From Parcubacteria bacterium C7867-006 (GTDB lineage Bacteria; Patescibacteriota; Minisyncoccia; Phycocordibacterales; DATDWN01), in contig LFCP01000001.1 of NCBI GenBank assembly GCA_001189155.1, positions 147,779 through 211,778 of the forward strand: a stretch of DNA of 64,000 nt, given 5' to 3'. This document shows positions 16,541-42,457 of this stretch, in pieces. Position 1 is the stretch's first letter; every line of letters starts with the position of its first letter. Under the pieces are notes generated by a model. That model was given only the letters and a program-made list of their open reading frames with translations, had not been told where the DNA came from and made no database searches. The position numbers were made by a program, and so were the translations under genes.

Positions 16541-17293
16541 ATGATGAATACCAAAAAAGTAATAGCTTGTGATTTGGATGGAACACTAGCTCCCAGCAAA
16601 TCATCTTTATCAAGAGAAATGTCAGATGTTATACGTCAGATTTTACCAAGGTATTCTCTAGCTGTTATTTCTGGAGGTGCTTTCCCTCAGTTTCAAAAAC
16701 AGTTTTTATTTAATTTAGATTGCCCTAAGGAGCTTTATAAGAATCTATATCTATTTCCAACAATGGGCAGTACTTGTTATGTTTACGACTATGAAAAAGA
16801 TGACTGGAAACAGATTTATGAAGAAAAGTTAAGTGATGAAGAGAGAAGAGATATAATACAAGCATTTAAAGATTCTATAAATGAGTCTGGTTTAGATTTG
16901 GAGGGTGCTTATGGAGAAATACTTGAAGACAGAGGAACACAAGTGACTTTTTCTGGTAGAGGACAGAATGCTCCAATAGATGCAAAAAATTCTTGGGATC
17001 CAGATAGAACAAAGAGACAGATTCTTGTTGATTTATTAAAAAGTAAAATACCAAATTTTGATATTAGGATGGGAGGAATGAGTTCTATTGATGTCACGAG
17101 ACTTGGAGTTGATAAGGCTTATGCTATAGGTAAAATAAAAAGTCTGTTGAACGTAAATGATGATGATATTGTTTTTGTTGGTGATGCTTTGTATAAAGGT
17201 GGTAATGATGCTCCAGTTAAAAAAACTAATGTGGATTATATTCAAGAAGATGGTCCAAACGAGACTCTAGAGTTGCTTAAAAATTATATATAG
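16541..17293 (+). CDS. HAD-IIB hydrolase, phosphomannomutase (eukaryotic PMM-type)-like
   Basis: CDLDGTL motif I, ~250 aa PMM-like length, mannose-metabolism gene context. Confidence 0.6.
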   Translation: MMNTKKVIACDLDGTLAPSKSSLSREMSDVIRQILPRYSLAVISGGAFPQFQKQFLFNLDCPKELYKNLYLFPTMGSTCYVYDYEKDDWKQIYEEKLSDEERRDIIQAFKDSINESGLDLEGAYGEILEDRGTQVTFSGRGQNAPIDAKNSWDPDRTKRQILVDLLKSKIPNFDIRMGGMSSIDVTRLGVDKAYAIGKIKSLLNVNDDDIVFVGDALYKGGNDAPVKKTNVDYIQEDGPNETLELLKNYI

Positions 17294-17345
17294 GATATCA
17301 ACATATTTTTTATACAAGTTCATTTTGCTGTGATAAAATTAGGAC

Positions 17346-17687
17346 ATGAATTCAACTACCACCAAAAGACCATGGGGGTCATTTACCCGTTTTACAGATA
17401 ATGAAAATTCTACAGTAAAACTTTTAAATATAAACAAAGGCGAGCAGTTGAGTTTGCAGTATCATATGAAAAGAAGTGAGTTTTGGAGAGTTATTTCTGG
17501 TAATCCAGAAATAATCATAGATGAGCAAAAATATGATGCTAAAGAGGGGGATGAGTTTAATGTTTCAGCTGAATCAAAACATAGGATAGGAGCTCCGTAT
17601 GATGACGTGGTTATTTTAGAGATATCTAAAGGTGATTTTGATGAGAACGACATAGTTAGACTCGAGGATAAATACAATAGGGTTTAA
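17346..17687 (+). CDS. Cupin-domain protein (mannose-6-phosphate isomerase type II cupin-like)
   Basis: QYHMKRSEFWRVISGNPEIIIDEQKYDAKEGDEFNVSAESKHRIGAPYDDVVILEIS. Confidence 0.6.
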   Translation: MNSTTTKRPWGSFTRFTDNENSTVKLLNINKGEQLSLQYHMKRSEFWRVISGNPEIIIDEQKYDAKEGDEFNVSAESKHRIGAPYDDVVILEISKGDFDENDIVRLEDKYNRV

Positions 17688-19576
17688 TGAAAAAGCACAT
17701 ATTAAAATCCCAGAAAAGCATGAAAATAAGCGGCTTGCCACTTGCTGTAATTTCTTTTGCTGGAAAAGTGGCAATACTACATAAAACTTCTTCAAAAACT
17801 TCTCCAATTCTATCTTTATCTTGGAGTCATAATGGTGTTGATTTTTTGCCAGATAGTAAAAAAGTATCTATATATACAATATCAAAGAAGAAAGAAAAAA
17901 TAGAAGCTTGTATTAATTTCTCTATTTCAAATACTCCAAACGGTTTTGTGATGACCTATATTAGGGTTTCAAAAATAAAAAATAAAAATAAATTAGTAGT
18001 TGCTCGTTCAAAAGATTTGTATAGATGGGACATAAAATCAGAACTAGACCCTGGGGACTCACAGTATGGAGCGGTAGTTTATGATAGACAGAAAGATAAG
18101 TTTGAGATGTATAGAGATGGTTTATTTATTAAAAACCAACCATCTATTTCTTTGTCTGTTTGGAAAGAAAAACCTAGATTAGTTTTTACATCAAGAGTCG
18201 GTCAGTTTGATGCCGGCAGAATGTCTATTATAGGAGGAACTGTTAGTACAGACGGTGTTTTAGTTTTTTATGATGCTAGCGTGGAAAATAATACAAAAAC
18301 TTTATTGCAAGTTGGGGCAGTAATTTTTGATATTAATAATCCAAAACATATTGTTTGGAGAAGTGGAATGCCAATATGGCAAGGTATTGTTGACTCAAAA
18401 GATAAAACTAGACCTATAAAACATCTGGGTTTTTCAAATCTCGGTAAAGAACTTATTTTTTATTGGTTAACAGCAGATTCAAACATAATTATTGTAAGAA
18501 TACCCGCAATGTTTAGGGAGACGGAAGATGCTCGTCATCACCCAAAAATTATGGATAGGTTTGAAAACAATCCAATAATAGAACCAATCGCTGGTAGTCA
18601 TTGGGAAAACGAAGGAACATTTAACCCTGCAGTTGTTGAGGATGATGAGGGTATAATACATATACTTTATAGAGCTGTTGGCGGAGATGGTATATCTCGT
18701 ATTGGATATGCAAAAAGTATAGACGGGGTAAGTCTAACAGGAAGATTGCCGTACCCTGTATTTGAACCAGCGCGCGGTTACGGAATGCCAGAGCCGGGAA
18801 AAGAAATGGGGCCACAGTCTTATAATCCTTATATTTATACTTCTGGTGGAGGATGGGGTGGTTCAGAAGACCCTCGTGCTGTTAGAATAGGTGATCGTGT
18901 TTATATGCTGTATACAGCTTTTGAAGGTTGGAATTCTATGAGGATAGCTCTGACTTCAATTAGTCTAAAAGATTTTAAATCTGGTAATTGGAAATGGAGA
19001 AAACCAAAATTGATATCATCTCCAGAAAATAGAAGTAAAAATTGGTTAATATTTCCTAAAAAAATAAAAGGAAAGTTTGCTGTATTGCACAGCATAAGTC
19101 CAAAGGTCTTGGTTGATTACGTAGATGATTTGGATAAGTTTGACGATATTATCTATAGTCCAAGACCAGAAGGCCCACAACCAGGAAGAAAAAATTCTTG
19201 GGACTTTTTATTAAAAGGATCTGGTCCTCCACCAGTTTTGACGGAAAAAGGCTGGTTGCTTTTGTACCATGCTTTGGAAAAAACTGATACAGGAAAGTAT
19301 AGACTTGGTGCAATGCTTTTGGATAAAGATGATCCAACAAAAATTATCTATCGTTCAGCTCACCCTATTCTTTCACCAGATATGCACTATGAAAATGACG
19401 GTAAACCTGGTGTTGTTTACGCATCAGGAGCGCTGATAAGAGGAGAGGACTTGTATGTTTATTATGGTGGTGGAGATAAGGTTGTTTGTGTAGCAAAAAC
19501 ACAAGTTTCAAAGTTATTAAAATATCTTGCTACAGGAAGCGCAAAACATTATCAGCTGGATAAAGCTAAATCATAA
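17687..19576 (+). CDS. Glycoside hydrolase family 130-like (beta-mannoside phosphorylase), tandem-domain protein
   Basis: Repeated GH130 signatures (GSEDPRAVRIGDRVYMLYTAFEGWN; WLLLYHALEKTD...YRLGAMLLDKDDPTKI); 629 aa. Confidence 0.65.
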   Translation: MKKHILKSQKSMKISGLPLAVISFAGKVAILHKTSSKTSPILSLSWSHNGVDFLPDSKKVSIYTISKKKEKIEACINFSISNTPNGFVMTYIRVSKIKNKNKLVVARSKDLYRWDIKSELDPGDSQYGAVVYDRQKDKFEMYRDGLFIKNQPSISLSVWKEKPRLVFTSRVGQFDAGRMSIIGGTVSTDGVLVFYDASVENNTKTLLQVGAVIFDINNPKHIVWRSGMPIWQGIVDSKDKTRPIKHLGFSNLGKELIFYWLTADSNIIIVRIPAMFRETEDARHHPKIMDRFENNPIIEPIAGSHWENEGTFNPAVVEDDEGIIHILYRAVGGDGISRIGYAKSIDGVSLTGRLPYPVFEPARGYGMPEPGKEMGPQSYNPYIYTSGGGWGGSEDPRAVRIGDRVYMLYTAFEGWNSMRIALTSISLKDFKSGNWKWRKPKLISSPENRSKNWLIFPKKIKGKFAVLHSISPKVLVDYVDDLDKFDDIIYSPRPEGPQPGRKNSWDFLLKGSGPPPVLTEKGWLLLYHALEKTDTGKYRLGAMLLDKDDPTKIIYRSAHPILSPDMHYENDGKPGVVYASGALIRGEDLYVYYGGGDKVVCVAKTQVSKLLKYLATGSAKHYQLDKAKS

Positions 19577-19586
19577 TATCAAAAAT

Positions 19587-21491
19587 ATGTTTGTTGTAAG
19601 AAAATCAAAACACAATCCAATACTCGCGCCGAATCCAGAAAATTCTTTTGAGAATTATGCCACTTTCAATGGTAATCCAATAGAGGTTGGTAAAAATATT
19701 CATTTACTTTATAGAGCACAATCTATTCCAGAAAAATTTGGAGATATAAATTTTTCAATGTCTGTCGTTGGCAAAGCTGTTAGTAAAGATGGTGTTAATT
19801 TTAAAAATAGATCAATTTTTATTGAACCAACAGAAGAGTGGGAGAGATATGGTTGTGAGGATCCAAGAGTAACTAAAATAGGGGGTAAATATTATACATT
19901 TTATACAGCGTTATCGGCTTTTCCATTAAATATTCCAGAAGGTATAAAAGTAGGTCTTGCTATTAGTCGGGACATGAAAAAGGTAGATGAGAAACATCTC
20001 ATCACACAATTCAATGCTAAAGCAATGTGTCTTTTCCCTGAAAAGATAAATGGCAAGTACATTGCAATGCTGACAGTGAATCCAGACCGACTACCAACAC
20101 ATATTACGTTGGCTGAGTTCAATAAGATTGAAGATATGTGGAATGAAAAGTATTGGAAGAAATGGTATTCAAATCTAGAAAAGCATATTTTTATAAGAGG
20201 AGATGACAATGATCGTATTGAAATAGGTAGTTGTCCAATTAAAACGGAGAAAGGTTGGCTGATAGTGTGTTGTCGAATTCAAAACCACTCTTCACCAAAT
20301 AGAGTATTTGCCATAGAAGCTTTTCTTTTGGATTTAAAGGATCCAAAGAAAATTATAGGTAAAACTAGAGGAGCTTTAGTTGTTCCTGAAGAAACATATG
20401 AGAAAAATGGAATAATCGGTAATACTATATTTCCGAGTGGAGCCAGAATAGAAAAAGATAAGTTAGTTATATATTACGGAGCAACTGATACAACTGTAGC
20501 TGTTGCTTCTGTTAGTTTGAACTCTCTTCTAGAGGTAATGACATACCCATATAAACAAATTGGTTTTGACAGGATAGGTGATGGAGTTTTAATGAGACCA
20601 AGGAAAGGAATAGCTTGGGAAGAGAAGGCTATATTTAACCCAGCGGCAATTGATATTGGCGGTGTAGTTAGGATACTTTATAGGGCAATGGGCAATGATA
20701 ATACATCTGTTATTGGTTATGCTGAAAGTGAAAATACTATAGATATATCATTTATTTCTGATAAACCAGCATATGTTCCAAGAGAGTCTTTTGAGAGTAA
20801 GGGGGTTCCTGGCGGTAATTCTGGATGTGAGGATCCCAGACTGACAAAAATTGGTGGAACTGTGTATATGTACTACACGGCGTATAACGGCATTACTCCT
20901 CCTGCCGTAGCGATGACTTCAATATTAGAAAAAGATCTTAAAAAAAGAAATTGGAATTGGACTAAACCTGTATTGGTTACTGCAGATGGTATAGACGATA
21001 AAGATGGATGTTTACATCCAGAAAAAGTTAATGGAAAATATTTCCTATTTCATAGAGTTCATAACTATATTTGTGGTGACTTTGGTTCAACTCCAGCTTT
21101 TCCAGAAAGAAATAGTTTTAAAAATACACCAATAATTCTACCTCGTCCGGGAATGTGGGATAGTGTAAAAGTTGGAATATCTGTACCCCCAATAAAGACT
21201 GATAAGGGTTGGTTGCTTCTTTACCATGGAGTATCAGCTCGATCTAGATATAGAATTGGTGCCGCTTTGTTGGATTTGAAAGACCCAACAAAAGTTTTGG
21301 CTAGGACAACAGACCCAATATTTGAGCCTAAAGAAGCGTATGAAATAGAAGGACAGGTAAATTATGTTGTTTTTCCATGTGGCGCGGTTGTTAGAGATGA
21401 TGAGATATATATGTATTATGGAGGGGCAGATTCTATTATAGATGTTTCTTCTATCTCGCTTAAAAAGCTTTTAAATGTGCTTACAAAATAA
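19587..21491 (+). CDS. Glycoside hydrolase family 130-like phosphorylase, tandem-domain protein
   Basis: Two copies of the GCEDPR(V/L)TKIGG..Y..YTA motif and two WLL(L/I)YHG..(R)YR(I/L)GAALLDL motifs. Start moved to the ATG at 19587, avoiding the overlap with the upstream gene. Confidence 0.65.
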   Translation: MFVVRKSKHNPILAPNPENSFENYATFNGNPIEVGKNIHLLYRAQSIPEKFGDINFSMSVVGKAVSKDGVNFKNRSIFIEPTEEWERYGCEDPRVTKIGGKYYTFYTALSAFPLNIPEGIKVGLAISRDMKKVDEKHLITQFNAKAMCLFPEKINGKYIAMLTVNPDRLPTHITLAEFNKIEDMWNEKYWKKWYSNLEKHIFIRGDDNDRIEIGSCPIKTEKGWLIVCCRIQNHSSPNRVFAIEAFLLDLKDPKKIIGKTRGALVVPEETYEKNGIIGNTIFPSGARIEKDKLVIYYGATDTTVAVASVSLNSLLEVMTYPYKQIGFDRIGDGVLMRPRKGIAWEEKAIFNPAAIDIGGVVRILYRAMGNDNTSVIGYAESENTIDISFISDKPAYVPRESFESKGVPGGNSGCEDPRLTKIGGTVYMYYTAYNGITPPAVAMTSILEKDLKKRNWNWTKPVLVTADGIDDKDGCLHPEKVNGKYFLFHRVHNYICGDFGSTPAFPERNSFKNTPIILPRPGMWDSVKVGISVPPIKTDKGWLLLYHGVSARSRYRIGAALLDLKDPTKVLARTTDPIFEPKEAYEIEGQVNYVVFPCGAVVRDDEIYMYYGGADSIIDVSSISLKKLLNVLTK

Positions 21492-21496
21492 ATAGA

Positions 21497-22672
21497 CTAT
21501 CTTGTGTCTACCAAAGAAAGAGAATAGTGTGCCCCTAGTATCATAGTTGTTCCAATAAATATAAATAGGTATTGAAATGGAATGAACTGTAAAATAATTG
21601 TTGCAAGTATGGGTGCAACAATAAAAGAGATAGGTCTAGCTATTCTAAAAAAGCTGATTACGTCAGTTTTTTCCTTGTCTACTTGTTTAAAGAAATAACT
21701 TTCCACACTTACTTCAACAAAACTTGCACCAATTCTGGTTATAAATAGTATGGTTGCCCACATCCAGAATATTTGTGCTGTGATAAAGCTTATAAAAAGA
21801 GTAGCTAGACCCATTACAATAAAACCTATTGTGAGAAATTCTTTTTCACCATACTTATCATCAGATAATTCTCCTAATGGGACCTCAAAAAGAATAAAAG
21901 GTAGAAGCATTATGGTAAAAATTATTCCGATTTCCGCCCAAGAAAAACCAATAACAGTTTCAAGATAGATAGGAGTGTAGATTATCATAAAAGCATAAAA
22001 TAATTGGAGTAGGAATTGAGATATCAAAATGTTGTATAGATTTTTATTTTTTATGTATTCAGAAGCTGTTTCTTTAAGTCTTATATGATGTATTTCTGTT
22101 GATTTTATATCTCTGAATTTTTTTATCAGGAAATAAACTGGCAGTATCGATAAACATGAGATTAAGTAAACATTTGTAAAAATATGATCCATTATTATCC
22201 ATGATAGACAAAATGGGGCAATGACTATTGTTATATTTGTTAGTGTGAGATAAGTTGCTCTGATACTTCCAACTTTTGTTTTGTCTTCTTCTATGGATTC
22301 TATAAGGACATCCATATTGAATAGAATAAGAGATATTGTAACTGTGTGTATTATAAACCAAAGACTTACATAAAAAGCCGAGTCAGATAAAGCCAAACCA
22401 GCAGTTGATATTATTTCTATAATTAAAGATAGAATAATAAATTTATAAACGCCAATCTTTTCTAGTATTTTTGATGCGTTAATTAAGAGAATAGTGCTTC
22501 CTGCCGAACTTATTATATAAAGAGCAGATACTTGTGTTTCAGAGAAAAGAGTAGATAGAAAAGAAGAGTTAATGTAGATAATTAACGCATAGTGAAATGA
22601 GATAAAAACATTGGACAAGAATAGAGTATTTAACAGTTTTCCTTGCTTGAACGGAGAAAGTATTTTATCCAT
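21497..22672 (-). CDS. Polytopic membrane transporter (MFS-like, ~11-12 TM)
   Basis: 391 aa and highly hydrophobic; adjacent to the GH130 genes. Confidence 0.5.
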   Translation of the reverse strand: MDKILSPFKQGKLLNTLFLSNVFISFHYALIIYINSSFLSTLFSETQVSALYIISSAGSTILLINASKILEKIGVYKFIILSLIIEIISTAGLALSDSAFYVSLWFIIHTVTISLILFNMDVLIESIEEDKTKVGSIRATYLTLTNITIVIAPFCLSWIIMDHIFTNVYLISCLSILPVYFLIKKFRDIKSTEIHHIRLKETASEYIKNKNLYNILISQFLLQLFYAFMIIYTPIYLETVIGFSWAEIGIIFTIMLLPFILFEVPLGELSDDKYGEKEFLTIGFIVMGLATLFISFITAQIFWMWATILFITRIGASFVEVSVESYFFKQVDKEKTDVISFFRIARPISFIVAPILATIILQFIPFQYLFIFIGTTMILGAHYSLSLVDTR

Positions 22673-22710
22673 ATAGAATCATTATATAGCAAAAAAATAC
22701 AATACAAAAC

Positions 22711-22736
22711 AAAATCCACCCTTTCGGATGGATTTT
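22711..22736. terminator. Bidirectional intrinsic terminator
   Basis: aaaatccaccctttcggatggatttt. Confidence 0.65.
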
Positions 22737-22740
22737 GTTT

Positions 22741-24564
22741 TTAGACTCCTAATATGACCGGTATAACCATCGGTTTTTTTGCGGTCTTTTGGAATAAGAA
22801 CCTTGCAACGTTGTCTGCAAGAACTGATTTCACCATATCAAAATCTATAGGATTCATACCTTGAGTTGTGTCTTCAACAGTTTTCTTTATTATCATTCGA
22901 GCGTTAGTCAAAAGATCTTGAGATTCTCTGACATAGACGAAACCTCTAGCGATAATATCTGGGGATTTCTTTAGTTTTCCAGTTTTTGTGTTGATACTTA
23001 CAACAATCAAGAATATTCCGTCTTGAGCTAGCATTTTTCTGTCTCTTATAACCATTTCTTGTACATCTCCAACAGAGAAACCATCAACCAAAACTAGATT
23101 TGAAGGAACTTTTTCTTTTAGAATTCTTATTTTTTCTCCATTATCGTAGATTTCAACGATCGAACCGTTGTCCGGTATAACCACGTCCTCTTTGTTGTGG
23201 CCGAGAGAATATGAAAGTTCAGCGTGTTGACAGAGCATATAATGGTTTCCGTGAACTGGCATAAAGAATTTGTAAGGAATCTGTTGGTGTATCCATTTCA
23301 ATTCATCTCTGTTTCCGTGACCAGATGCGTGAATATCAGAGTCTAGGTATGTAACAATTTTTGCCCCAGATCTGTAGAGGTTATCTTTGAGGTTCACAAC
23401 AGATTTGTGATTTGTTGGAATAACAGAAGCAGATAGTAGAACTGTATCTGTTGGTTTTAGACGTACGTATTTATGAGTTTTATTCGCTATTCTCATTAGC
23501 GCTGCAAATTCCTCTCCTTGTGCACCTGTAACTAGCATTATGATTCTGTCTGGGGGATAGTTTTCAATATCTTCCAATGGAATAATATTTTTTGCATCAG
23601 CTAGTTTGAGGTGTTTAACTATTTCAATATTTGATTTCATTGAACGACCTTCAATAACAATTTTTTTGTTGTATTTTTCTGCTGCATTTATAATCGCAAT
23701 TATTCTCTCTACTTGGGAAGCGAATGTCGCAATTATTAGTCTACTTTTTGTTTCTTTAATGAATTTATCAATATTTTCTACTACCACATTTTCTGATAGA
23801 GAAAATCCCGGTTTTTCAATAGATGTTGAGTCCATCGTTAGCAATAGAGTGTTCATGTTTTTAAACATTTTATATTGCTCAACCTCTTCTTCTGTTGGAA
23901 CTCCATTTACGTTGTCCACTCTAACATCTTCAATAAAAACTATATTTCCATATGGAGTTTCTATTATAAGACCCATTGAGTCTGGAATAGTGTGAGAAAT
24001 AGGAAAAGTTTTTACTTTCAATGAGCCAACGTTGATAGTTTCGTTTCCTTCAATTATTTGAATATCTAGAGGTTGTAGGTGAGGGAACTCATCTTGTCTT
24101 TTTTGGATCATTATTGCTCCGAACTGTCTTGTGTAGATTTTTGGGTAACCAATTCTGTCTATTATGAAAGGTAATCCTCCTATGTGATCTAGGTGTCCGT
24201 GTGTGATGAAAAGACCTCTAATTCTATCTTTGTTATCTTCAAGGTATTTTGTGTTTGGAAGAATATAATCTATTCCAGGAGTATCTTCGTCTTTGAATTG
24301 GAAACCAATATCAATAACTATGATATCGTTTTTGTACTCAATCATGGTCATATTTCTTCCGATTTCTTCTACTCCACCAAGGGGTATTATTCTGATGTTG
24401 TCTCCAATAGGAGGGATTATGTCTTCTGCCTTCTTCATCATTCTCGGTGATGTTGGTGTTCTACCAAATGATTTTCGGCCAAAAGACGATCTACTTCTCC
24501 CATGAGAATGACCTCTTCCTTCTCTTCCAGTATTTCTTACTTCTTTTTTCTGTTCTGTGTCCAT
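22741..24564 (-). CDS. rnj: Ribonuclease J (metallo-beta-lactamase/beta-CASP)
   Basis: HGHLDHIGG motif, 607 aa, basic disordered N-terminus. Confidence 0.8.
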   Translation of the reverse strand: MDTEQKKEVRNTGREGRGHSHGRSRSSFGRKSFGRTPTSPRMMKKAEDIIPPIGDNIRIIPLGGVEEIGRNMTMIEYKNDIIVIDIGFQFKDEDTPGIDYILPNTKYLEDNKDRIRGLFITHGHLDHIGGLPFIIDRIGYPKIYTRQFGAIMIQKRQDEFPHLQPLDIQIIEGNETINVGSLKVKTFPISHTIPDSMGLIIETPYGNIVFIEDVRVDNVNGVPTEEEVEQYKMFKNMNTLLLTMDSTSIEKPGFSLSENVVVENIDKFIKETKSRLIIATFASQVERIIAIINAAEKYNKKIVIEGRSMKSNIEIVKHLKLADAKNIIPLEDIENYPPDRIIMLVTGAQGEEFAALMRIANKTHKYVRLKPTDTVLLSASVIPTNHKSVVNLKDNLYRSGAKIVTYLDSDIHASGHGNRDELKWIHQQIPYKFFMPVHGNHYMLCQHAELSYSLGHNKEDVVIPDNGSIVEIYDNGEKIRILKEKVPSNLVLVDGFSVGDVQEMVIRDRKMLAQDGIFLIVVSINTKTGKLKKSPDIIARGFVYVRESQDLLTNARMIIKKTVEDTTQGMNPIDFDMVKSVLADNVARFLFQKTAKKPMVIPVILGV

Positions 24565-32765: not shown

Positions 32766-35513
32766 ATGAGTATAACAGTCACTAGGCACGATGGTAAAAA
32801 AGAACCTTTCAATGCAGATAAAATCAATCGTTCTATAGAAAGAGCGTGCTACGGACTGTTTGATCCAGTCTCAAAAGTAACTCAAATCGCGACTGAAACA
32901 CAACTCACTCTTTATGATGGAATTACAACTGATGAAATGGATCAGGCGACCATTAATGCAGCTGTTCAAAATATAAAAGATGATATTGAGTACGACATAG
33001 TAGCAAAAAGACTTCTACTAAAAACTCTCTACAGACAAGTTATAAAAGATTTTCATCCTAGTGATGAGGTAGAAGTATTTGCAAACAAACATAGAATAAG
33101 TTTTATTGATTTTATAGAAACAGGAGTAGCAAACGGAAAGCTTCATCCAGAAATGAAAGCAAAGTTTAATCTAAATGAACTAGCGAACACACTTAAAATA
33201 GAAAGAGATGAGTTATTTCAGTATGCTGGACTAGATGGATTGATAAATAGATATTTAATAAAAGATATAAACCAGAAGCCTATTGAGGTTCCTCAGTACT
33301 TCTTTATGAGAATTGCAATGGGGCTTTCATATAATGAAAGCAACCCAACAGAAATGGCAAAGAAGTTTTACAACAAAATGTCCAGACTAGAGTATGTTGC
33401 TGGAGGTTCAACTAATCTTGCTGCTGGAACAATTAACCCTGCACTTTCTAACTGTTATTTGTTGGAAATTCAAGATGATATGAGACATATTGCAAAGTCT
33501 GTTTCTGATGTAATGCTTCTCTCAAAAGGTTCTGGAGGAATTGGAGCTTCTGTTACAAAACTTCGTGCTTCAGGTTCTCCATTGAGAAAATATGGAGGAA
33601 CATCTACTGGACCAACTCCATTTGCGAAAATAATCGATACTGCTATTCGTGCTATCCAAAGAGGTGGAAAGAAAAAAGGTGCTCTATGTTTCTATATGGA
33701 GAACTGGCACATTGATTTTCCAGAGTTTTTGGATTGGAAAAAGAATAATGGTGATGACTATATGAGAATGCGAACAGCAAACACTGCTGTATTTCTATCT
33801 GATGAGTTTATGAAGCGCGTAGCTTCTGGAGATGAGTGGTATATGTTTGATCCCGCCGAGACAGCTGATTTAAATGAATTGTACGGAGAGGCTTTTTCAA
33901 AGAGATACGTTGAGTATGTAGATATGGCTAACGCAGGAAAATTAAGAGCTTTTAAAAAAGTTCCAGCTAGTGAACAGTACAGACAAATTTTGACAGAACT
34001 ACAAAGTTCATCACATCCATGGCTCGTTTGGAAAGATTCAATAAATCTTAGAGCGTTAAACAATAACACTGGTACTATTCATATGAGTAACCTTTGTACA
34101 GAAATTTGTTTACCTCAAGACAGGGATAATGTTGCTGTATGTAATCTAGCATCACTTAACCTTGCAGCTCACATAAAAAATAAAGAAGTAAATTGGTCAC
34201 GACTAGAAGAGTCAGTCAGACTTGCAGTAAGACAGTTAGATAATCTTATTGATATAAATGTTCTTCCTATTCCAGAGGCTGCAAAGTCTGACAGAGAGAA
34301 CAGAGCAGTTGGACTTGGCGTTATGGGATTTTCTGACACTATTGAACAGCTTGGAATGTCTTATGACTCACCGCACGCATGGGATTTTGCTGACAGGATA
34401 TTTGAGTTCGTTTCATATATGGCGATAGATGAGTCAGCAAATCTAGCTCAAGAAAGAGGAAGTTATACAAATTTCCAGGGTTCAGAATGGTCTAAAGGAA
34501 AAGTTCCAATAGATACACTAGTTACTCTTGAGGAGGGAAGAGGGCGACCTCTTACAGTCTCTAAAACAAGTAAACATAAAGGACTTAATTGGGACGTTTT
34601 GAGATCAAAAGTTTCAAAGGGAATGCGAAACGCAACTCTAATGGCTGTAGCTCCAAATGCAAATATCGGTTTACTCGCAGCTACAACTCCAGGAATAGAT
34701 GCTAGATTTGCACAGGTATTTTCTAGAAATAAAATTTCAGGAAAATATCTAGATATAAATCATAATCTCGTAAAAGATTTAAAAAATATGGGAATCTGGG
34801 ATGATGTAAAGGAGCAGATTATTGAAAATCAAGGAGATATTGCTGGAATATCACTTATTCCTCCTCACATAAAAGAAGTTTACAAAACATCATTTACAAC
34901 TTCACCTTATGCGTATATTGAAGTTGCTGCTAGAGCACAAAAATGGGTTGATCAAGCTTTATCACGAAATATGTATCTAGAAACTAGAGATATTGATGAG
35001 ACTATGCAGATATATAGTACTGCTTGGGAAAAAGGTTTGAAGTCTACATACTATCTACATATGAAACCTAGACATACAGCAGAGCAGAGCACAACAAATG
35101 TAAATAAAGCTGCAAAAATTGGAAAGGTTGGATTCGGTGCGTTGAATTTTTCAAATTCACCAGCTTTTTCTGCACCACTTCAGAAGTCTCTTGATGTAAA
35201 TGTTCCAACTCAGGCTCCGATAGTAGAACCTGTAGCAGTAGTTTCTCCTATGACAGCAAAACAAGAGGCTATTGCTAATATAACTTTGGAGGAAGAGATA
35301 TTGGTTTCAACTTCTATTGTAAAAACAGAGCCTGTATTTTCTCAACCAGTTATGGTAAAAGAGGAAGTAGTTGTTCAGGAAAAAGTTCTGGTTAGTGAGG
35401 CTCCAAGAAATGAATACAAACCTCTTGAGAGAGTGGTTGGGGAGAAAAAATATAATATTATCGCTCCGGAGGATCCGGCGGATAGTGATAATATTTGCAT
35501 CGCCTGCCAATAG
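32766..35513 (+). CDS. nrdA: Ribonucleotide reductase large subunit (class I alpha-type, with ATP-cone and C-terminal extension)
   Basis: N-terminal ATP cone (VTRHDGKKEPFNADKINRSIERA), NLCTEI active-site motif, C-terminal CxxC; followed by the R2 gene. Confidence 0.8.
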   Translation: MSITVTRHDGKKEPFNADKINRSIERACYGLFDPVSKVTQIATETQLTLYDGITTDEMDQATINAAVQNIKDDIEYDIVAKRLLLKTLYRQVIKDFHPSDEVEVFANKHRISFIDFIETGVANGKLHPEMKAKFNLNELANTLKIERDELFQYAGLDGLINRYLIKDINQKPIEVPQYFFMRIAMGLSYNESNPTEMAKKFYNKMSRLEYVAGGSTNLAAGTINPALSNCYLLEIQDDMRHIAKSVSDVMLLSKGSGGIGASVTKLRASGSPLRKYGGTSTGPTPFAKIIDTAIRAIQRGGKKKGALCFYMENWHIDFPEFLDWKKNNGDDYMRMRTANTAVFLSDEFMKRVASGDEWYMFDPAETADLNELYGEAFSKRYVEYVDMANAGKLRAFKKVPASEQYRQILTELQSSSHPWLVWKDSINLRALNNNTGTIHMSNLCTEICLPQDRDNVAVCNLASLNLAAHIKNKEVNWSRLEESVRLAVRQLDNLIDINVLPIPEAAKSDRENRAVGLGVMGFSDTIEQLGMSYDSPHAWDFADRIFEFVSYMAIDESANLAQERGSYTNFQGSEWSKGKVPIDTLVTLEEGRGRPLTVSKTSKHKGLNWDVLRSKVSKGMRNATLMAVAPNANIGLLAATTPGIDARFAQVFSRNKISGKYLDINHNLVKDLKNMGIWDDVKEQIIENQGDIAGISLIPPHIKEVYKTSFTTSPYAYIEVAARAQKWVDQALSRNMYLETRDIDETMQIYSTAWEKGLKSTYYLHMKPRHTAEQSTTNVNKAAKIGKVGFGALNFSNSPAFSAPLQKSLDVNVPTQAPIVEPVAVVSPMTAKQEAIANITLEEEILVSTSIVKTEPVFSQPVMVKEEVVVQEKVLVSEAPRNEYKPLERVVGEKKYNIIAPEDPADSDNICIACQ

Positions 35514-35660
35514 AACCTTTAAATTTGACGAATACCACAAGGGTACTTCTTGTTTTCTAGCTCACTTCGTTCTCAAGAAAACAAAGTCGCTCCCTCGTTC
35601 AGTTTCATTTAAAAGTTCTATGATGAGCAGATTATTTATAAATTTAATTAAAATAAAATC

Positions 35661-36668
35661 ATGACACTAATAGGAAAACCATCACCGACGGATATGAATT
35701 TGCATCCTCTAAATTATAAGTGGGCATATGATTTATATAATCAAGCAGTGAGAAATACTTGGTTTCCACATGAAATTGCTTTAAAGGAGGATTTGGAGGA
35801 TTTTGAAAAAATGACAGAGGATGAGAGGCATGCAGTAAAGTTTTTGATGGCCTTTTTTAATCCTGCAGAGCTCATAGTTAACAGGTCTATTGCTTTGGGT
35901 ATATATCCGTATTTGAAATCTCCAGAGTGTCATTTGTATCTAGCGAAACAAATGTGGGAAGAAGCAAACCACTGTGTGTCTTTTGAGTATGTTTTGGAAA
36001 CCTTTCCTTTCGATAGAGAGTCTGTTTTTAATACTCATCTAGAAGTTCCATCTATGATTGCGAAAGAGGCCTTCATAAACAAATACCTTTCTAGAATGAC
36101 AGATGACAAGCTTGATATTGATACAGTTGAGGGAAAGAAAGATTTTATTAGAAATTTAGTTGCTACAAATATTGTGATGGAGGGAGTTTGGTTCTATTCC
36201 GGTTTTATGGTTGCTCTTTCTTTTCGACAAAGAAATCAACTTAGAAACTTTGGTTCAATGATAAACTGGGTACTACGAGATGAAAGTTTACATCTAAAGT
36301 TTGGTATCAATCTCGTTCATAACATTTTGGAAGAAAATCCAGAACTACTAACAGAGGAGTTTGCTGCTGAAATCAGAAATATTGTCATAGAAGGTGTTGA
36401 TCTAGAGGTTGCTTATAATAAAGATCTATTCCCAAATGGAATACTTGGTCTAAATGCGGATTATGTTAACCAGTACGTACAATATGTCGCAGACAGAAGA
36501 CTTCAGGAGCTTGGAATGCCTAAATATTATAACGCAACAAACCCAGCAAAGTGGATGAGTACTGCGACAGATGTGTTTGAACTAGTAAACTTCTTTGAAT
36601 CACAGAACACTAGCTACGAGGTTGATTCTCATTCAAGTGGAACAAAAAAAGAAAATCCTGCCGAGTAG
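35661..36668 (+). CDS. nrdB: Ribonucleotide reductase small subunit (R2, ferritin-like)
   Basis: EEANH iron-ligand motif, EGVWFYSGF, 335 aa. Confidence 0.8.
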   Translation: MTLIGKPSPTDMNLHPLNYKWAYDLYNQAVRNTWFPHEIALKEDLEDFEKMTEDERHAVKFLMAFFNPAELIVNRSIALGIYPYLKSPECHLYLAKQMWEEANHCVSFEYVLETFPFDRESVFNTHLEVPSMIAKEAFINKYLSRMTDDKLDIDTVEGKKDFIRNLVATNIVMEGVWFYSGFMVALSFRQRNQLRNFGSMINWVLRDESLHLKFGINLVHNILEENPELLTEEFAAEIRNIVIEGVDLEVAYNKDLFPNGILGLNADYVNQYVQYVADRRLQELGMPKYYNATNPAKWMSTATDVFELVNFFESQNTSYEVDSHSSGTKKENPAE

Positions 36669-36722: not shown

Positions 36723-37781
36723 TTGAACATTTTTAATATGTCATTTTTTAGCAAAAACAAAAAGATAAAAGTTGCGATAAACGGTTTTGGTAGAATCGGA
36801 AGACAATTCCTAAAAGAGAGTTGGGATAGAGAGGAACTAGAAGTTGTTGCTGTAAATGATTTAGGAAATGTTGATAATATGGCCTATCTTTTAAAGTACG
36901 ACACCGTGTATAAGACTTGGAAGCATGATGTATCTGTAAAGGATGGAAATCTGGTTATAGATGGACGAGTGGTAAAATTTGTTTCTGAAAAAGAACCAAC
37001 AAAACTTCCATGGAAGGATTTGGATATTGATGTGGTTGTGGAGTCCACAGGACTTTTCACTTCATATGACAAAGCATCTGTGCATCTACAAGCTGGAGCA
37101 AAAAAGGTTGTGATTTCTGCACCCGCAAAAGATGGTGATGATGCTGGCGTTAAAGGTGAAACTATTTTAATGGGTGTAAACGAAGAAAAGTTTGGAACAT
37201 GTGATGTAACTTCAAATGCATCTTGTACAACAAATGCAGCTTCACCACTCATTGCTATTATGGACGAGAACTTTGGTATAGAAAAAGCAATTCTTAACAC
37301 TGTGCATGGATATACAGCTAGTCAGGCCCTGGTTGACGGTCCATCAAAGAAAGATTTGAGAGAGGGAAGAGCAGCGGCACAAAATATAGTTCCATCATCA
37401 ACAGGTGCTGCTATAGCTGTTACAAAGGCATTTACAAAACTAGAGGGGTTATTTGATGGTATTTCTATCAGAGTACCAGTTCCAGCTGGGTCTATTGTTG
37501 ATGTAACTTTTATTTCAAAGAAAGAAACCACAGCAGAGGAGGTCAACGATGTGCTTAGAAAGGCTGCAGCCAACGACAGATGGAAAAATATTTTCTCTGC
37601 AACAGATGAGGAACTAGTTTCATCAGATATTTTGGGTAGTCATTATGGTTCTATTGCTGATCTCAAAATGACACGTGTTGTTGGTGGAAACCTGGTTAAA
37701 GTAATGGCTTGGTACGATAATGAGGCGGGATATACTCACACTCTCATAGACCATGTTATAAAAACGGCTAACGCCCAATAA
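36723..37781 (+). CDS. gap: Glyceraldehyde-3-phosphate dehydrogenase
   Basis: KVAINGFGRIGR Rossmann motif, SCTTNA active site. Confidence 0.9.
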   Translation: MNIFNMSFFSKNKKIKVAINGFGRIGRQFLKESWDREELEVVAVNDLGNVDNMAYLLKYDTVYKTWKHDVSVKDGNLVIDGRVVKFVSEKEPTKLPWKDLDIDVVVESTGLFTSYDKASVHLQAGAKKVVISAPAKDGDDAGVKGETILMGVNEEKFGTCDVTSNASCTTNAASPLIAIMDENFGIEKAILNTVHGYTASQALVDGPSKKDLREGRAAAQNIVPSSTGAAIAVTKAFTKLEGLFDGISIRVPVPAGSIVDVTFISKKETTAEEVNDVLRKAAANDRWKNIFSATDEELVSSDILGSHYGSIADLKMTRVVGGNLVKVMAWYDNEAGYTHTLIDHVIKTANAQ

Positions 37782-38390: not shown

Positions 38391-39054
38391 AGTCCTGCCA
38401 GCCATTATTCCTGTAAATAAAGTTCAGTTGGAAGAAGAAATTAATAAAGTTTCTAGTTTTGCTGATTTTATTCAAGTTGACATCGCAGATGGAACTTTTG
38501 CTCCTGTTAAAACTTGGCCATATAACAGCAGAGACGAAGAATATTTTGAACAACTAAAAACTCAAAATACTGGTTGGCCAAAATGGGAGTATGTTGATAT
38601 AGAACTTCATATGATGGTATCCAATCCAGAGAATATTTTGGAGGAATGGATTTCAACTGGTATTTCTTCTGTTGTTGTACACATAGAAGCAACAGAAAAT
38701 TTTCAAAAAATTATAGATATTTGTAAAAACAATGAAGTTTCTGTTGGAGTTGCTGTAAAACCAAGTACAGATATTTCAAAAATAGAATCGATAGTCTCCC
38801 AAATAGATTTTATTCAAGTTATGGGTTCAGATAACATAGGTAGACATGGAGTTGAGCTTGAAGAAAAAGCTATTGAGAGAATAAAAGAATTGCGAAAGCT
38901 TTATCCAGAGCGTATAATTGCTATTGATATAGGTGTAACGACTGAAACCGCAGAGAATCTGGTAAGGGCTGGTGCAAATAAATTAATCTCTGGCGGTGCA
39001 ATACTGAATTCAGAAAATCCGGAGGAGGTTTTTGATTTTCTATCATCTCTTTAA
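38383..39054 (+). CDS. Ribulose-phosphate 3-epimerase family protein
   Basis: TIM-barrel pattern DIADGTF.P...HMMV...GVAVKP...QVMGS; pentose-phosphate gene neighbourhood. Confidence 0.55.
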   Translation: MTKVLPAIIPVNKVQLEEEINKVSSFADFIQVDIADGTFAPVKTWPYNSRDEEYFEQLKTQNTGWPKWEYVDIELHMMVSNPENILEEWISTGISSVVVHIEATENFQKIIDICKNNEVSVGVAVKPSTDISKIESIVSQIDFIQVMGSDNIGRHGVELEEKAIERIKELRKLYPERIIAIDIGVTTETAENLVRAGANKLISGGAILNSENPEEVFDFLSSL

Positions 39055-39055
39055 A

Positions 39056-39958
39056 ATGGCAATGCCAAATTTAACAGACGACAAAATAAAGTTCCTTGAG
39101 GAAAAGGCTAAGGCGATACGCATTTCAATCATAGAAATGCTTGTTGCTGCTGGATCAGGACATTCTGCAGGTCCACTTGGTATGTCTGATATTTTTGCCG
39201 CACTTTATTTTTTTATACTTAGACACAACCCCGCAGAACCATTTTGGGAGGAAAGAGACAGACTTATTCTTTCAAATGGCCACATAAATCCAGTTTTATA
39301 TGCAACGATGGCTCACGCTGGTTATTTTCCTGTTTCTGAACTTTTGACATTACGAAAGTTCGGTACTCGTCTTCAGGGGCATCCACACAGAGAGTATTTA
39401 CCAATGTTGGAAAATAGTTCTGGGCCTTTGGGTTCTGGATTGTCACAGGCTGTTGGAATGGCGATTGCAGACAGGATGGATAAAGGAAAAACTTCAGATA
39501 GATTTTTTTATTGTTTGCTTGGTGATGGAGAATTGGATGAGGGACAGAACTGGGAGGCTATAATGTTAGCTAATAAAGAAAGATTGGGGAATCTAATAGT
39601 TTTTGTAGATAGAAATAATATTCAGATAGATGGGTATACGGAGGATGTTATGCCTCTCGATTCTGTTCTGCATAAGTTCGAGTCATTCGGTTGGCATGCA
39701 GAGGAGATTGACGGTCACAACTTTGCGGAGATTATCGCAGCTGTAGGACGTGCACAGGCTGTCTTTGATGGTCCTAGTGTAATAGTAGCGCGAACAATCC
39801 CAGGAAAAGGAGTTTCATTTATGGAGCGTGATTATAAATGGCACGGCAATCCACCAGGAACAGATATTCCAGGTGAACCACCAAAAGATGAACAAGCAAA
39901 GATAGCTTTGCATGACTTGAGAACGTTAGGTGGACAAATAACTTCAGAACACCAATAA
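39056..39958 (+). CDS. Transketolase, N-terminal subunit (split tkt)
   Basis: TPP-binding GDGELDEGQNWEA motif; alternative TTG start at 39032. Confidence 0.8.
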   Translation: MAMPNLTDDKIKFLEEKAKAIRISIIEMLVAAGSGHSAGPLGMSDIFAALYFFILRHNPAEPFWEERDRLILSNGHINPVLYATMAHAGYFPVSELLTLRKFGTRLQGHPHREYLPMLENSSGPLGSGLSQAVGMAIADRMDKGKTSDRFFYCLLGDGELDEGQNWEAIMLANKERLGNLIVFVDRNNIQIDGYTEDVMPLDSVLHKFESFGWHAEEIDGHNFAEIIAAVGRAQAVFDGPSVIVARTIPGKGVSFMERDYKWHGNPPGTDIPGEPPKDEQAKIALHDLRTLGGQITSEHQ

Positions 39959-39959
39959 A

Positions 39960-40958
39960 ATGATTAACTTAATCCAAAAATTAAATCCAAAGATTTTTGA
40001 TAAAAAGGTAGAACAGGTACCTATTCGCCAGGGATTTGGTGAAGGTTTAGTTATTGCTGGAGAAAACAATACTCAGGTTGTGGGACTTTGTTCTGATTTA
40101 ACAGAGTCAACAAAAATGCATTTGTTCAGAGATAAATTCCCAGAAAGATTTGTTGAGATTGGTATTGCAGAGCAGAATTTAGCTTCGGTTGCTTCTGGAA
40201 TGTCTGCAATGGGAAAGATACCTTTCATATCTAGCTACGCAATGTTTTCTCCTGGTAGGAATTGGGAACAAATCAGAACCACTATTTGTTACAACGATAG
40301 ACCTGTAGTTATTGCTGGAAGTCATGCCGGAGTTTCTGTTGGTCCAGATGGAGGAACCCATCAAGCCATAGAAGATCTTGCTATTACTCGTGTAATACCA
40401 AATATGGTAGTTATTTCTCCTTGTGATGCTATAGAAGCAAAGAAAGCCACAATAGCGGCAGCAGAACTCAAAAAACCTGTTTACATAAGACTGGCTAGAG
40501 AAAAAACTCCAGTCATAACAACAGAATCAACACCGTTTGAAATTGGTAAAGCTCAAATATATTTTGGAGAAGAAAAGGGAAAGGCTGATGTGGGAATTAT
40601 TGCTACTGGGGCATTGCTATACAAGGCTCTCAAAGTTGCAGAAGCTTTAAAAAAAGATGACATAACAGCAAAGGTTTTAAATATTTCTACAATTAAACCA
40701 ATAGATACTGATGCAGTTATAAATATTGCAAAAACTTGCGGAGCGATAGTCACTGTTGAGGAGCACCAGATTATTGGGGGACTCGGTTCAGCTGTTTCAG
40801 AAGTTCTAGTGCAAAATTTTCCTGTGCCACAGGAGTTTATTGGGGTTCATGATAAGTTCGGACAGAGTGGTAAGCCAGATGAACTTATTGAACATTATGA
40901 AATGGGGGAGAAAAGTATTTTATTGGCAGTCAAAAAAGTTATAGGGAGGAAAAATTAA
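39960..40958 (+). CDS. Transketolase, C-terminal subunit (split tkt)
   Basis: Pyrimidine-binding/C-terminal domain; 1-nt gap after the N-terminal subunit. Confidence 0.8.
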   Translation: MINLIQKLNPKIFDKKVEQVPIRQGFGEGLVIAGENNTQVVGLCSDLTESTKMHLFRDKFPERFVEIGIAEQNLASVASGMSAMGKIPFISSYAMFSPGRNWEQIRTTICYNDRPVVIAGSHAGVSVGPDGGTHQAIEDLAITRVIPNMVVISPCDAIEAKKATIAAAELKKPVYIRLAREKTPVITTESTPFEIGKAQIYFGEEKGKADVGIIATGALLYKALKVAEALKKDDITAKVLNISTIKPIDTDAVINIAKTCGAIVTVEEHQIIGGLGSAVSEVLVQNFPVPQEFIGVHDKFGQSGKPDELIEHYEMGEKSILLAVKKVIGRKN

Positions 40959-41467: not shown

Positions 41468-42457
41468 CTAGATTTTTTTGATTTTATAATCTTCAGGAGC
41501 TTTGGCTAGATATTCTTCAATTTTTTCTGGAGAAAGTAATCCTTTTTGAGCTCCGACATGTTGTGTAACTGACATTGCGTTTATTGGTGCCCATGTTAGA
41601 GCCTCTCCTAGAGTTTTACCTTGAGCTAAAATAGATACAACTGTTGATGCATAGGCATCGCCAGCTCCAGTTCTGTCTATTGGTGTGTGTGGATATACGG
41701 ACATAAACCACATATCGCCAGTTGATGACTCAAATGCATAAGCTCCTTCAAAACCATCTGTTATAACTACAGTTTTTGGTCCAAGAGCACTAATGCCTTT
41801 CATGAGTGTAGGTAGGTCGCGACTAGTTTCGTTTAATATTTTCTGTGATTCTTCAACGTTACAGAAAAAAATCTCACTATTTTTATATATTCTTTCTAAT
41901 TCTTTCGCTCCCATTTTTATTTGAAATGTTCCTGGCTGAAAAGCTAGTTTTGTTTCCGGATGACTCTCGACAAAATCAACTATTTGCATTTGGAAATCAA
42001 AAGTATTGTCTCCTAGTGATGAAAGATAAATCCATCTTGGAGCTTCTTCTACTTTGAAATCATATTTATAGTGTTCGTGTTTAACCAAAATAGTTCTGTC
42101 TACGTCATACCATAGTACGTAATGGTAGTTTGTTTTATTTGCCGGGTCTATATGAACGTATTTTGTTTCAACTTTATCGTTTTGAAGAGAGGTTAGACAT
42201 TCTTTTCCATCTTTATCATCTCCTACATATGCATATAGTGCAGAGGATAGACCTAGTCGTGAGGCTGATACTGCTGCATTAGCACTGTTTCCAACCGCAT
42301 AACATATTTCCACTGATTCATATGGAACTTTGTCACCATAACGAACACAGAGCTTGCAGTTTTTGTTGTGATCATCACATTTCACTTCTGCATCATTCAT
42401 TTTTATAAAAGCATCTACTACTATGTCGCCAATGGCCAGTATATCTATATTTTTCAT
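41468..42457 (-). CDS. PfkB-family carbohydrate kinase (ribokinase-like)
   Basis: C-terminal GAGDAYASTVV motif. Confidence 0.75.
   Translation of the reverse strand: MKNIDILAIGDIVVDAFIKMNDAEVKCDDHNKNCKLCVRYGDKVPYESVEICYAVGNSANAAVSASRLGLSSALYAYVGDDKDGKECLTSLQNDKVETKYVHIDPANKTNYHYVLWYDVDRTILVKHEHYKYDFKVEEAPRWIYLSSLGDNTFDFQMQIVDFVESHPETKLAFQPGTFQIKMGAKELERIYKNSEIFFCNVEESQKILNETSRDLPTLMKGISALGPKTVVITDGFEGAYAFESSTGDMWFMSVYPHTPIDRTGAGDAYASTVVSILAQGKTLGEALTWAPINAMSVTQHVGAQKGLLSPEKIEEYLAKAPEDYKIKKI

Follow-up and report, generated by a model that had tools for sequence, protein, structure and literature searches.

The closest described relatives of the system analysed here are Teth514_1788 and Teth514_1789 of Thermoanaerobacter sp. 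X-514 (glycoside hydrolase family 130, subfamily GH130_6; PDB 9fj8, 7fip), two cytoplasmic enzymes encoded by adjacent paralogous genes, which PMC4264767 and PMC12814180 present as beta-1,2-oligomannan and beta-1,2-mannobiose phosphorylases. Both are single-domain proteins of ~300 aa that form homodimers, and Teth514_1788 and a second enzyme, Uhgb_MS, have been described as dimers (PMC12814180). Proteins with two GH130 modules are rare: GH130-GH130 sequences made up 4 of 1592 in the CAZy database in November 2018, were biochemically uncharacterised, and had modules that fell, for each protein, in the same similarity-network node (PMC7660257). The family also includes the beta-1,2-mannosidases BT3780 and BACOVA_03624 (PDB 5a7v, 3qc2; PMC4599007), secreted or periplasmic single-domain enzymes that lack the basic phosphate ligands, keep the acid Asp and a beta-1,2-specific Lys, and carry a Glu227/Glu268 pair. 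More distantly, the GT108 mannosyltransferases/phosphorylases of Leishmania (PMC12814180) combine a GH130-like fold with beta-1,2-mannoside chemistry on mannose-1-phosphate (Man1P) and cycle an intracellular reserve; they are eukaryotic, belong to a different CAZy family and also use GDP-mannose, and are likened to the present system by description only. Here, we describe a gene cluster with two double-GH130 proteins, A and B, at positions 16541-22672 of a 64,000-nt stretch of the genome of Parcubacteria bacterium C7867-006; this whole stretch is referred to below as the window.

Like the Thermoanaerobacter enzymes, proteins A and B are products of two adjacent paralogous GH130 genes. The Teth514 enzymes, both acting on beta-1,2 linkages, were the nearest solved structures and the best sequence and structure matches of three of the four halves of A and B (B_C, B_N, and A_C, as defined below), at identities of ~30-45% over the aligned regions. 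In the present locus, by contrast, each gene specifies a pair of propellers, and the phosphate site is altered or lost in three of these four. The tandem architecture is shared with the GH130-GH130 proteins in CAZy and is thus rare but not unprecedented; however, the four propellers of A and B form four deeply diverged clades with differing active sites. What is new is that a pair of double propellers, in which four active-site states have become differentiated, is conserved throughout the lineage, and that natural variants exist in which A and B are fused. In our literature searches for GH130 in Patescibacteria and the candidate phyla radiation, the sole find was a brief remark on "two GH130 enzymes", lacking signal peptides, in a genome of the Microgenomates. 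The genes and domains of the cluster are as follows, with the N- and C-terminal halves of each protein denoted by subscripts.

16541-17293, forward strand: HAD-IIB sugar-phosphate mutase of the eukaryotic phosphomannomutase (PMM) or L. lactis alpha-phosphoglucomutase type, 250 aa (PF03332, TIGR01484)
17346-17687, forward strand: stand-alone cupin of the type II phosphomannose isomerase (PMI) catalytic-domain type, 113 aa (PF01050)
17687-19576, forward strand: protein A, double GH130-fold protein, 629 aa
17726-18511, forward strand: A_N, degenerate five-bladed propeller with the GH130 fold, residues ~14-275 of protein A (hhalign, NF052550, AF2/Foldseek)
18554-19576, forward strand: A_C, GH130 domain with a putatively remodelled phosphate site, protein A residues ~290-629 (PF04041)
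19587-21491, forward strand: protein B, two Pfam GH130 domains, 634 aa
19587-20546, forward strand: B_N, GH130 domain without phosphate ligands, protein B residues 1-320 (PF04041)
20589-21491, forward strand: B_C, GH130 domain with a complete set of beta-1,2-mannoside-phosphorylase-type residues, protein B residues ~335-634 (PF04041)
21497-22672, reverse strand: major facilitator superfamily (MFS) transporter, 391 aa, convergent with protein B (PF07690)

Domain architecture of proteins A and B

Protein B contains two independent PF04041 GH130 domains, with E values far beyond chance in both the N half (1.2e-39) and the C half (1.6e-55). In protein A, a single Pfam GH130 domain was found, in the C half (PF04041, 2.2e-39), while residues 1-297 had no Pfam match even at E<=10. 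The expectation that each protein would show two GH130 domains in Pfam was thus confirmed for B and failed for A, where one half went unmatched. That half is nevertheless not unrelated. A profile of A_N orthologues (~100 sequences) aligned with the A_C and B_C profiles over 236-248 columns (hhalign 96.8%, E ~3e-10), the single A_N sequence matched the NCBIfam model NF052550 (E 6.6e-11), and a phmmer search of the PDB with A_N gave six weak matches, every one of them to GH130. The AlphaFold2 (AF2) model of A_N alone was all-beta (pLDDT 89.4, pTM 0.86), and in Foldseek its top 33 matches were all GH130 structures (E 3e-14 to 3e-9, TM ~0.66-0.70), led by the BT3780 and BACOVA_03624 structures, with GH43 propellers ranking behind at TM ~0.5. 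The model of full-length protein A (pLDDT 86.3, pTM 0.73) matched GH130 structures at 4e-21. Because of the hhalign, NF052550, phmmer and Foldseek results, we count A_N as a GH130 homologue despite the Pfam null; as judged from profiles and its predicted fold, it is a strongly degenerate GH130 propeller that lies outside the reach of the current Pfam model. Proteins A and B are both double GH130 propellers.

The sequence motifs reported as duplicated in both proteins are so in part. B has two copies of the EDPR motif and A has one, and the YH[GA]...YR.GA motif is confined to the C halves, with a single copy in each protein. For all four domains, the best-matching NCBIfam model was NF052550 (beta-1,2-mannobiose phosphorylase), with scores of 419 bits for whole protein B, 239 for B_C, 198 for A_C, 185 for B_N, and 42 for A_N. 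Conservation differed between the halves: 69 positions of B_N and 83 of B_C were near-invariant (>=98%), compared with 23 of A_N and 89 of A_C. B_N is thus nearly as constrained as B_C, and A_N far less so than A_C, although selection clearly still acts on it. In a neighbour-joining tree built from the four domain types together with Teth514_1788 and Teth514_1789, each type formed a distinct clade with 95-100% bootstrap. All deeper groupings of this tree, which bear on the order of duplication, had <=36% bootstrap. By analogy with the dimeric relatives, the N-terminal propellers are best seen as outcomes of the common path by which a homodimer becomes a fused pseudo-dimer, after which one half may decay (A_N) or take on a specialised role (B_N).

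Active-site states of the four propellers

In the reference enzyme UhgbMP, D104 is the proton donor, R168 and H231 are phosphate ligands, and the +1 subsite includes R59 and D304 together with Y103, replaced by Glu in beta-1,2/1,3 enzymes, and R150, replaced by Lys in those specific for beta-1,2 linkages (PMC7660257). R242 of Uhgb_MS is a further phosphate ligand (PMC12814180). Phosphate is bound by "three basic residues", and Lys199 of BT3780 confers beta-1,2 specificity (PMC4599007); the loss of the basic phosphate ligands marks GH130 members that are not phosphorylases (PMC4599007; PMC7660257). We placed the four domains in one alignment with the sequences of Teth514_1788 and Teth514_1789, as rebuilt from HMMER alignments, and counted residues at the active-site columns in 112 orthologues of B and 118 orthologues of A.

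The catalytic Asp was invariant in B_C (D416), B_N (D92), and A_C (D395), but all three basic phosphate ligands were retained only in B_C (R490, K528, and H547). In this domain, R366, E415, D416, K472, H489, R490, H547, and D615 were invariant in 112/112 sequences, and the third basic ligand, at position 528, was Lys in 111 and Arg in one. Its catalytic, phosphate and +1-subsite residues are identical to those of Teth514_1788 and Teth514_1789, and by these residues B_C carries the full signature of a beta-1,2-mannoside phosphorylase. B_N likewise kept R43, E91, D92, K145, and D301 in 112/112 sequences. At its phosphate-ligand positions, however, the equivalent of R168 was Thr, Ser, or Ala, that of R242 was Gln, Arg, or His, and that of H231 was Ser, Cys, or Ala, a pattern that predicts that B_N is no phosphorylase. 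In B_N, a Glu (E212) is invariant two residues past the lost Arg/Lys ligand, where B_C has an invariant Gly.

In A_C, R329, E394, D395, K451, H528, and D597 were invariant across the orthologues. Its R168 equivalent was Ser, Gly, or Thr (Arg in 1/118), and its R242 equivalent was Leu, Met, Ile, or Val, the next position along being invariably basic. The phosphate site of A_C appears to have been remodelled and, since the His is kept and a basic residue lies one position along, may still bind an anion. A_N has gone furthest: the donor position was Asn, Arg, or Gly (Asp in 5/118), the neighbouring Glu was variable, and the phosphate-ligand positions were not conserved, with Asp in the place of the His, from which A_N is predicted to be catalytically dead.

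The Glu before the catalytic Asp and the Lys at the position of UhgbMP R150 and BT3780 K199 were invariant in B_C, B_N, and A_C. Because of this Glu next to the acid and this Lys, the specificity residues predict beta-1,2 rather than beta-1,4 linkages. They speak against beta-1,4-mannobiose and mannosyl-glucose, the substrates that had been put forward for these proteins.

The operon and its conservation

The mutase, the cupin, A, and B are four densely packed genes on the same strand with unbroken reading frames. The stop codon of the cupin overlaps the start codon of A, and 10 nt separate the stop of A from the start of B. A scan of the forward-strand intergenic gaps of the operon for terminator-like sites found none, and a promoter scan was uninformative (30 sites compared with 30.3 in shuffled sequence). 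The gene coordinates given by the first-pass annotation were correct except for the start of B. The longest open reading frame (ORF) for B begins at TTG 19527, inside protein A; because the listed B orthologues are mostly 630-640 aa long, typically 634, and those inspected start with MF(V/T)V, the true start is most likely ATG 19587. For protein A, an identical database protein of 618 aa (P0126) places the start at Met12.

The first gene product, the HAD protein, matched the PF03332 PMM family at 47.8 bits (cutoff, 22.4), with a second Pfam match to PF08282, and the NCBIfam HAD-IIB model TIGR01484 at 3.5e-19. It contains the DxDxT/DxDGT nucleophile motif of HAD enzymes (CDLDGTL, with C-D-L-D-G-T at residues 10-15). 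Its HAD-IIB fold and PF03332 membership are common to L. lactis PgmH (PDB 4bnd) and to eukaryotic PMM1 and PMM2. In a PDB search, the nearest solved relative was the alpha-phosphoglucomutase 4bnd at 121 bits, whereas phosphomannomutases scored <=60 bits, and the firm PMM identity previously assigned to this protein was not upheld. PgmH acts on glucose phosphates, going by its PDB molecule name and the title of Neves et al. 2006; in contrast, the operon setting of the HAD protein, beside a PMI cupin and GH130 genes, argues for mannose phosphates. With an alpha-phosphoglucomutase as the closest solved relative, the putative specificity for mannose rests on that context. The cupin matched PF01050 at 68.4 bits (cutoff, 23.6) over profile positions 10-116 of 116 and corresponds to the C-terminal PMI part of TIGR01479 (GMP_PMI). 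Its best PDB match was 7zvm, a 113-aa "mannose-6-phosphate isomerase", and the stand-alone 113-aa protein is predicted to be a PMI-type catalytic cupin.

Relatives of B with full-length coverage were found in at least 567 species-representative genomes, mostly of Patescibacteria lineages (Zambryski-, Nomura-, Taylor-, Campbell-, Jorgensen-, and Moranbacteria). These lineage names agree with the reduced host organism suggested at the outset, which is of the Patescibacteria type; from its base composition (~31-42% GC) and the source names of the homologues (Parcubacteria, Paceibacterota, Zambryskibacteria, Minisyncoccia), the window belongs to the Paceibacteria branch. A minority of the genomes with B relatives were named otherwise, for example Omnitrophota, Nitrospira, Gammaproteobacteria, Bacteroidetes, and Nanoarchaeota. 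Among loci L008-L087, many contigs with the operon likewise bore such names, Planctomycetia and "uncultured Candidatus Saccharibacteria" included; these are probably generic or mis-binned taxonomy labels. We compared synteny in 87 loci (L001-L087), of which 47 form a distant set at ~50% identity (L041-L087). An A-type gene lay immediately upstream of B in 78/87 loci, the cupin was present in 63/87, and the HAD mutase was found upstream of cupin-A-B in 45/87, many loci ending on that side. The order mutase-cupin-A-B is kept across Paceibacteria down to ~50% identity, and both GH130 genes are ~620-680 aa in the distant loci as well. Together with the Pfam assignments, this synteny bore out the view of the cluster as a mannoside-phosphorolysis-type operon of a HAD mutase, a PMI cupin, and two GH130 proteins. 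An exhaustive HMMER search with A_N recovered 183 representatives, almost all of them N-termini of ~620-aa proteins, compared with only five proteins in a word-indexed homologue search.

Three proteins, P0109 (1110 aa), P0113 (971 aa), and P0117 (996 aa), each contain three Pfam GH130 domains, which were typed as A_C + B_N + B_C; they are homologous to window positions 18554-21491. By this typing they are single-chain fusions of A and B without A_N, of the Rosetta-stone type. Such natural fusions argue for joint action of A and B and against a need for A_N. From gene adjacency and fusion, A and B probably work as one complex.

Several loci carry additional genes. In 11 of the 47 distant loci, a ~163-aa cytidylyltransferase-like gene (PF01467, with the motif GGFDPVHIGH; e.g., L073:3175-3666, forward strand) precedes the mutase; it could encode a pathway-linked sugar-1-phosphate nucleotidyltransferase, and the window has no such gene. 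In one close relative, A and B are separated by a further ORF of 306 aa that has no match in Pfam (L001:7071-7991, forward strand), and in several relatives (L001, L005, and L006) two small ORFs of ~95 and ~130 aa, likewise unmatched in Pfam, stand between B and the MFS gene; all of these are missing from the window. In three Zambryskibacteria loci (L002-L004:34-1461), an RVT_1 reverse transcriptase and a bAvd-like gene, resembling the pair found in diversity-generating retroelements, lie just upstream of the cluster, as do an AbiEii gene and a gene for a VWA protein.

The MFS gene matched PF07690 (MFS_1) at 3.1e-29, with weak NCBIfam matches to drug-efflux and sugar permease families. It is convergent with B, only 5 nt from the B stop codon, and co-occurred with the cluster in 38/87 loci; within the distant set it was present only in L045 (66% identity). 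Along with genes for RNase J and an SBP_bac_5 protein, it accompanies the cluster only in closer relatives (>=60% identity). Because it is absent from ~50%-identity loci that still keep mutase-cupin-A-B, its presence here appears to be local synteny, with no core part in the operon. We therefore dropped both the earlier assignment of the transporter to the cluster and the idea that it serves as the operon's core importer. On the reverse strand at 22706-22741, after RNase J and before the MFS gene, is a strong terminator-like hairpin with a 16-bp stem and a T-rich tail. Its location between the two genes suggests a separate transcription unit for the MFS gene.

Proposed pathway, alternative readings, and significance

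Our preferred reading, which we hold to be somewhat probable, is that the operon serves cytoplasmic beta-1,2-mannoside processing in Paceibacteria, with Man1P converted through mannose-6-phosphate (Man6P) to fructose-6-phosphate (Fru6P). We infer both the substrate and the direction of flux. B_C would act as an inverting GH130 phosphorylase that reversibly converts Man-beta-1,2-Man(n) and phosphate into alpha-mannose-1-phosphate. The HAD-type mutase would turn Man1P into Man6P, the small PMI cupin would turn Man6P into Fru6P, and Fru6P would pass to enzymes of glycolysis and the pentose-phosphate route whose genes lie in other parts of the window. A and B, each an intramolecular double propeller, would derive from ancient duplications, and their N-terminal propellers would no longer be phosphorylases. 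A_N may be a scaffold or a binding module after the loss of its catalytic Asp. B_N may bind the glycan chain or cleave it without phosphate in the manner of a hydrolase or transglycosylase, and A_C would have a divergent site of uncertain nucleophile, in which the phosphate His is kept along with the acid and the ligands of the sugar while the two Arg/Lys positions are changed. Both proteins are probably cytoplasmic, as nothing resembling a signal peptide was seen when their N-termini were inspected by eye; a hydrophobic stretch at residues 17-24 of A is the first propeller beta-strand in the AF2 model.

A central-carbon gene cluster sits ~15-20 kb downstream of the operon and encodes GAPDH (36723-37781), a split transketolase (39032-40958), a PfkB-family kinase (41468-42457, reverse strand), and a class II fructose-bisphosphate aldolase (42486-43370). 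Because the aldolase, GAPDH, transketolase, and PfkB kinase are all in the window, the Fru6P from the PMI step would have a plausible sink. Also encoded in the window are the large subunit, which has an ATP-cone, and the small subunit of a class I ribonucleotide reductase (32766-36668) and a GT2 glycosyltransferase (50588-51835, reverse strand), all of them ordinary genes.

Several points weigh against this pathway. Every domain, and whole protein B, scored below the NF052550 equivalog cutoff of 450 bits, so that the identity of the substrate is extrapolated. The closest solved relative of the HAD enzyme is an alpha-phosphoglucomutase and not a PMM, the A-B complex is proposed from gene adjacency and fusion, the role of B_N E212 depends on the alignment register, and the whole A/B clade is known from sequences. 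Moreover, no importer was conserved with the operon in the distant lineages (L041-L087), and flux could be synthetic.

The alternative that survives best, although we regard it as doubtful, concerns B_N, which could be an active hydrolase, a convergent beta-1,2-mannosidase with E212 as its base that would make B bifunctional, or else a non-catalytic lectin-like or dimer-mimicking domain. The invariance of Asp92, Glu91, Lys145, Arg43, and Asp301 in all 112 orthologues, combined with an invariant Glu gained two residues after the lost ligand, speaks for this reading, and replacement of the basic phosphate ligands by carboxylates is the route by which GH130 hydrolases arose (PMC4599007). Since the acid and subsite residues are invariant and the new carboxylate lies near the former phosphate pocket, phosphate-independent catalysis by B_N is plausible. 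B_N resembles the BT3780-type enzymes in that its basic ligands are gone and the acid Asp and the beta-1,2 Lys remain; A_N, for whose model those enzymes were the top Foldseek matches, lacks the acid. However, the known GH130 hydrolases have a Glu pair and signal peptides, whereas B_N appears cytoplasmic with a single new invariant Glu. B_N scored 72.7 bits with the BT3780 model NF058598 (cutoff, 550) compared with 184.9 for the phosphorylase model; it is no nearer to the hydrolase model than the other domains are, and by NCBIfam it groups in sequence with the phosphorylase lineage. In addition, hydrolysis would waste the energy saved by the phosphorylase, and the position of E212 relative to C1 comes from the alignment and not from a three-dimensional structure.

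An anabolic or cycling role is unlikely but is a live alternative. Here, Fru6P would be converted to Man6P and Man1P, and the GH130 proteins, using Man1P in reverse phosphorolysis, would lay down a beta-1,2-mannooligosaccharide inside the cell as a reserve or osmolyte and draw on it again, by analogy with GT108 mannogen cycling in Leishmania, with the non-canonical domains serving as primer-binding or chain-trimming sites. The PMI and mutase reactions are reversible. The enzymes appear cytoplasmic by the inspection of their N-termini, no importer is kept with the operon beyond close relatives, and the PF01467 nucleotidyltransferase-fold gene described above stands upstream of the mutase in some distant loci. 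Furthermore, GH130 beta-1,2 enzymes readily make oligomannan from Man1P, as described in PMC4264767 and PMC12814180, and it is this synthetic capacity, together with the lack of a conserved importer, that keeps reserve cycling under consideration. Against it, our literature searches gave no report of beta-1,2-mannan in Patescibacteria, and no polymer-specific accessory genes were seen. Phosphorylases are, in addition, generally catabolic in vivo, where phosphate is in excess.

A bolder combination of the two seems distinctly improbable to us. A and B would together form a four-propeller machine with one classical phosphorylase site that cycles an endogenous cytoplasmic beta-1,2-mannan reserve, with B_N providing a phosphate-independent cleavage or transfer site on Glu212, A_C a re-engineered anion site, and A_N a dead scaffold. 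If this were true, the reserve would be to these bacteria what mannogen is to Leishmania, and a carbon and energy buffer of the ultra-small Paceibacteria.

Less credible again is the original proposal that each protein consists of two active phosphorylase units, giving four working sites with processive or dual-specificity action on, for example, beta-1,4-mannobiose or mannosyl-glucose. Protein B does have two strong Pfam GH130 domains, and B_N and A_C keep an invariant catalytic Asp and all sugar-contacting residues, which suggests that these two domains have been selected for more than folding. However, the acid and the three basic ligands occur together in only one domain of the four, B_C: A_N lacks the catalytic Asp, B_N has none of the three basic ligands in 112/112 orthologues, and A_C lacks the R168 equivalent in 117/118 and is hydrophobic at the R242 equivalent, while the Glu and Lys specificity residues point to beta-1,2 over beta-1,4 linkages. 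Finally, that the double-domain genes are artefacts of assembly or of frameshift fusion of single-domain GH130 genes, for which nothing speaks except that CAZy lists so few GH130-GH130 proteins, can be dismissed, given more than 110 full-length orthologues each of A and B (600-670 aa) from many independent assemblies, the breadth of species genomes with B relatives, the continuous frames, and the confident model of full-length A.

These findings change no paradigm, but they bear on both the family and the lineage. GH130 enzymes have been treated as essentially single-module proteins, and the Paceibacteria operon is a lineage-wide exception, in which tandem and paralogous duplication led to four propeller types that differ in how far the phosphate site has been lost or remodelled. 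The four types offer a natural series for the conversion of a phosphorylase site to other chemistries or to pseudoenzymes. The assignments also correct automatic annotation, in which many homologues are named "predicted GH43/DUF377" or "hypothetical protein". The operon is one of few carbohydrate-active gene sets kept across Paceibacteria, and it suggests that these uncultivated episymbiotic bacteria use beta-1,2-mannosides as a nutrient or a reserve, which would provide a handle for their cultivation and physiology.

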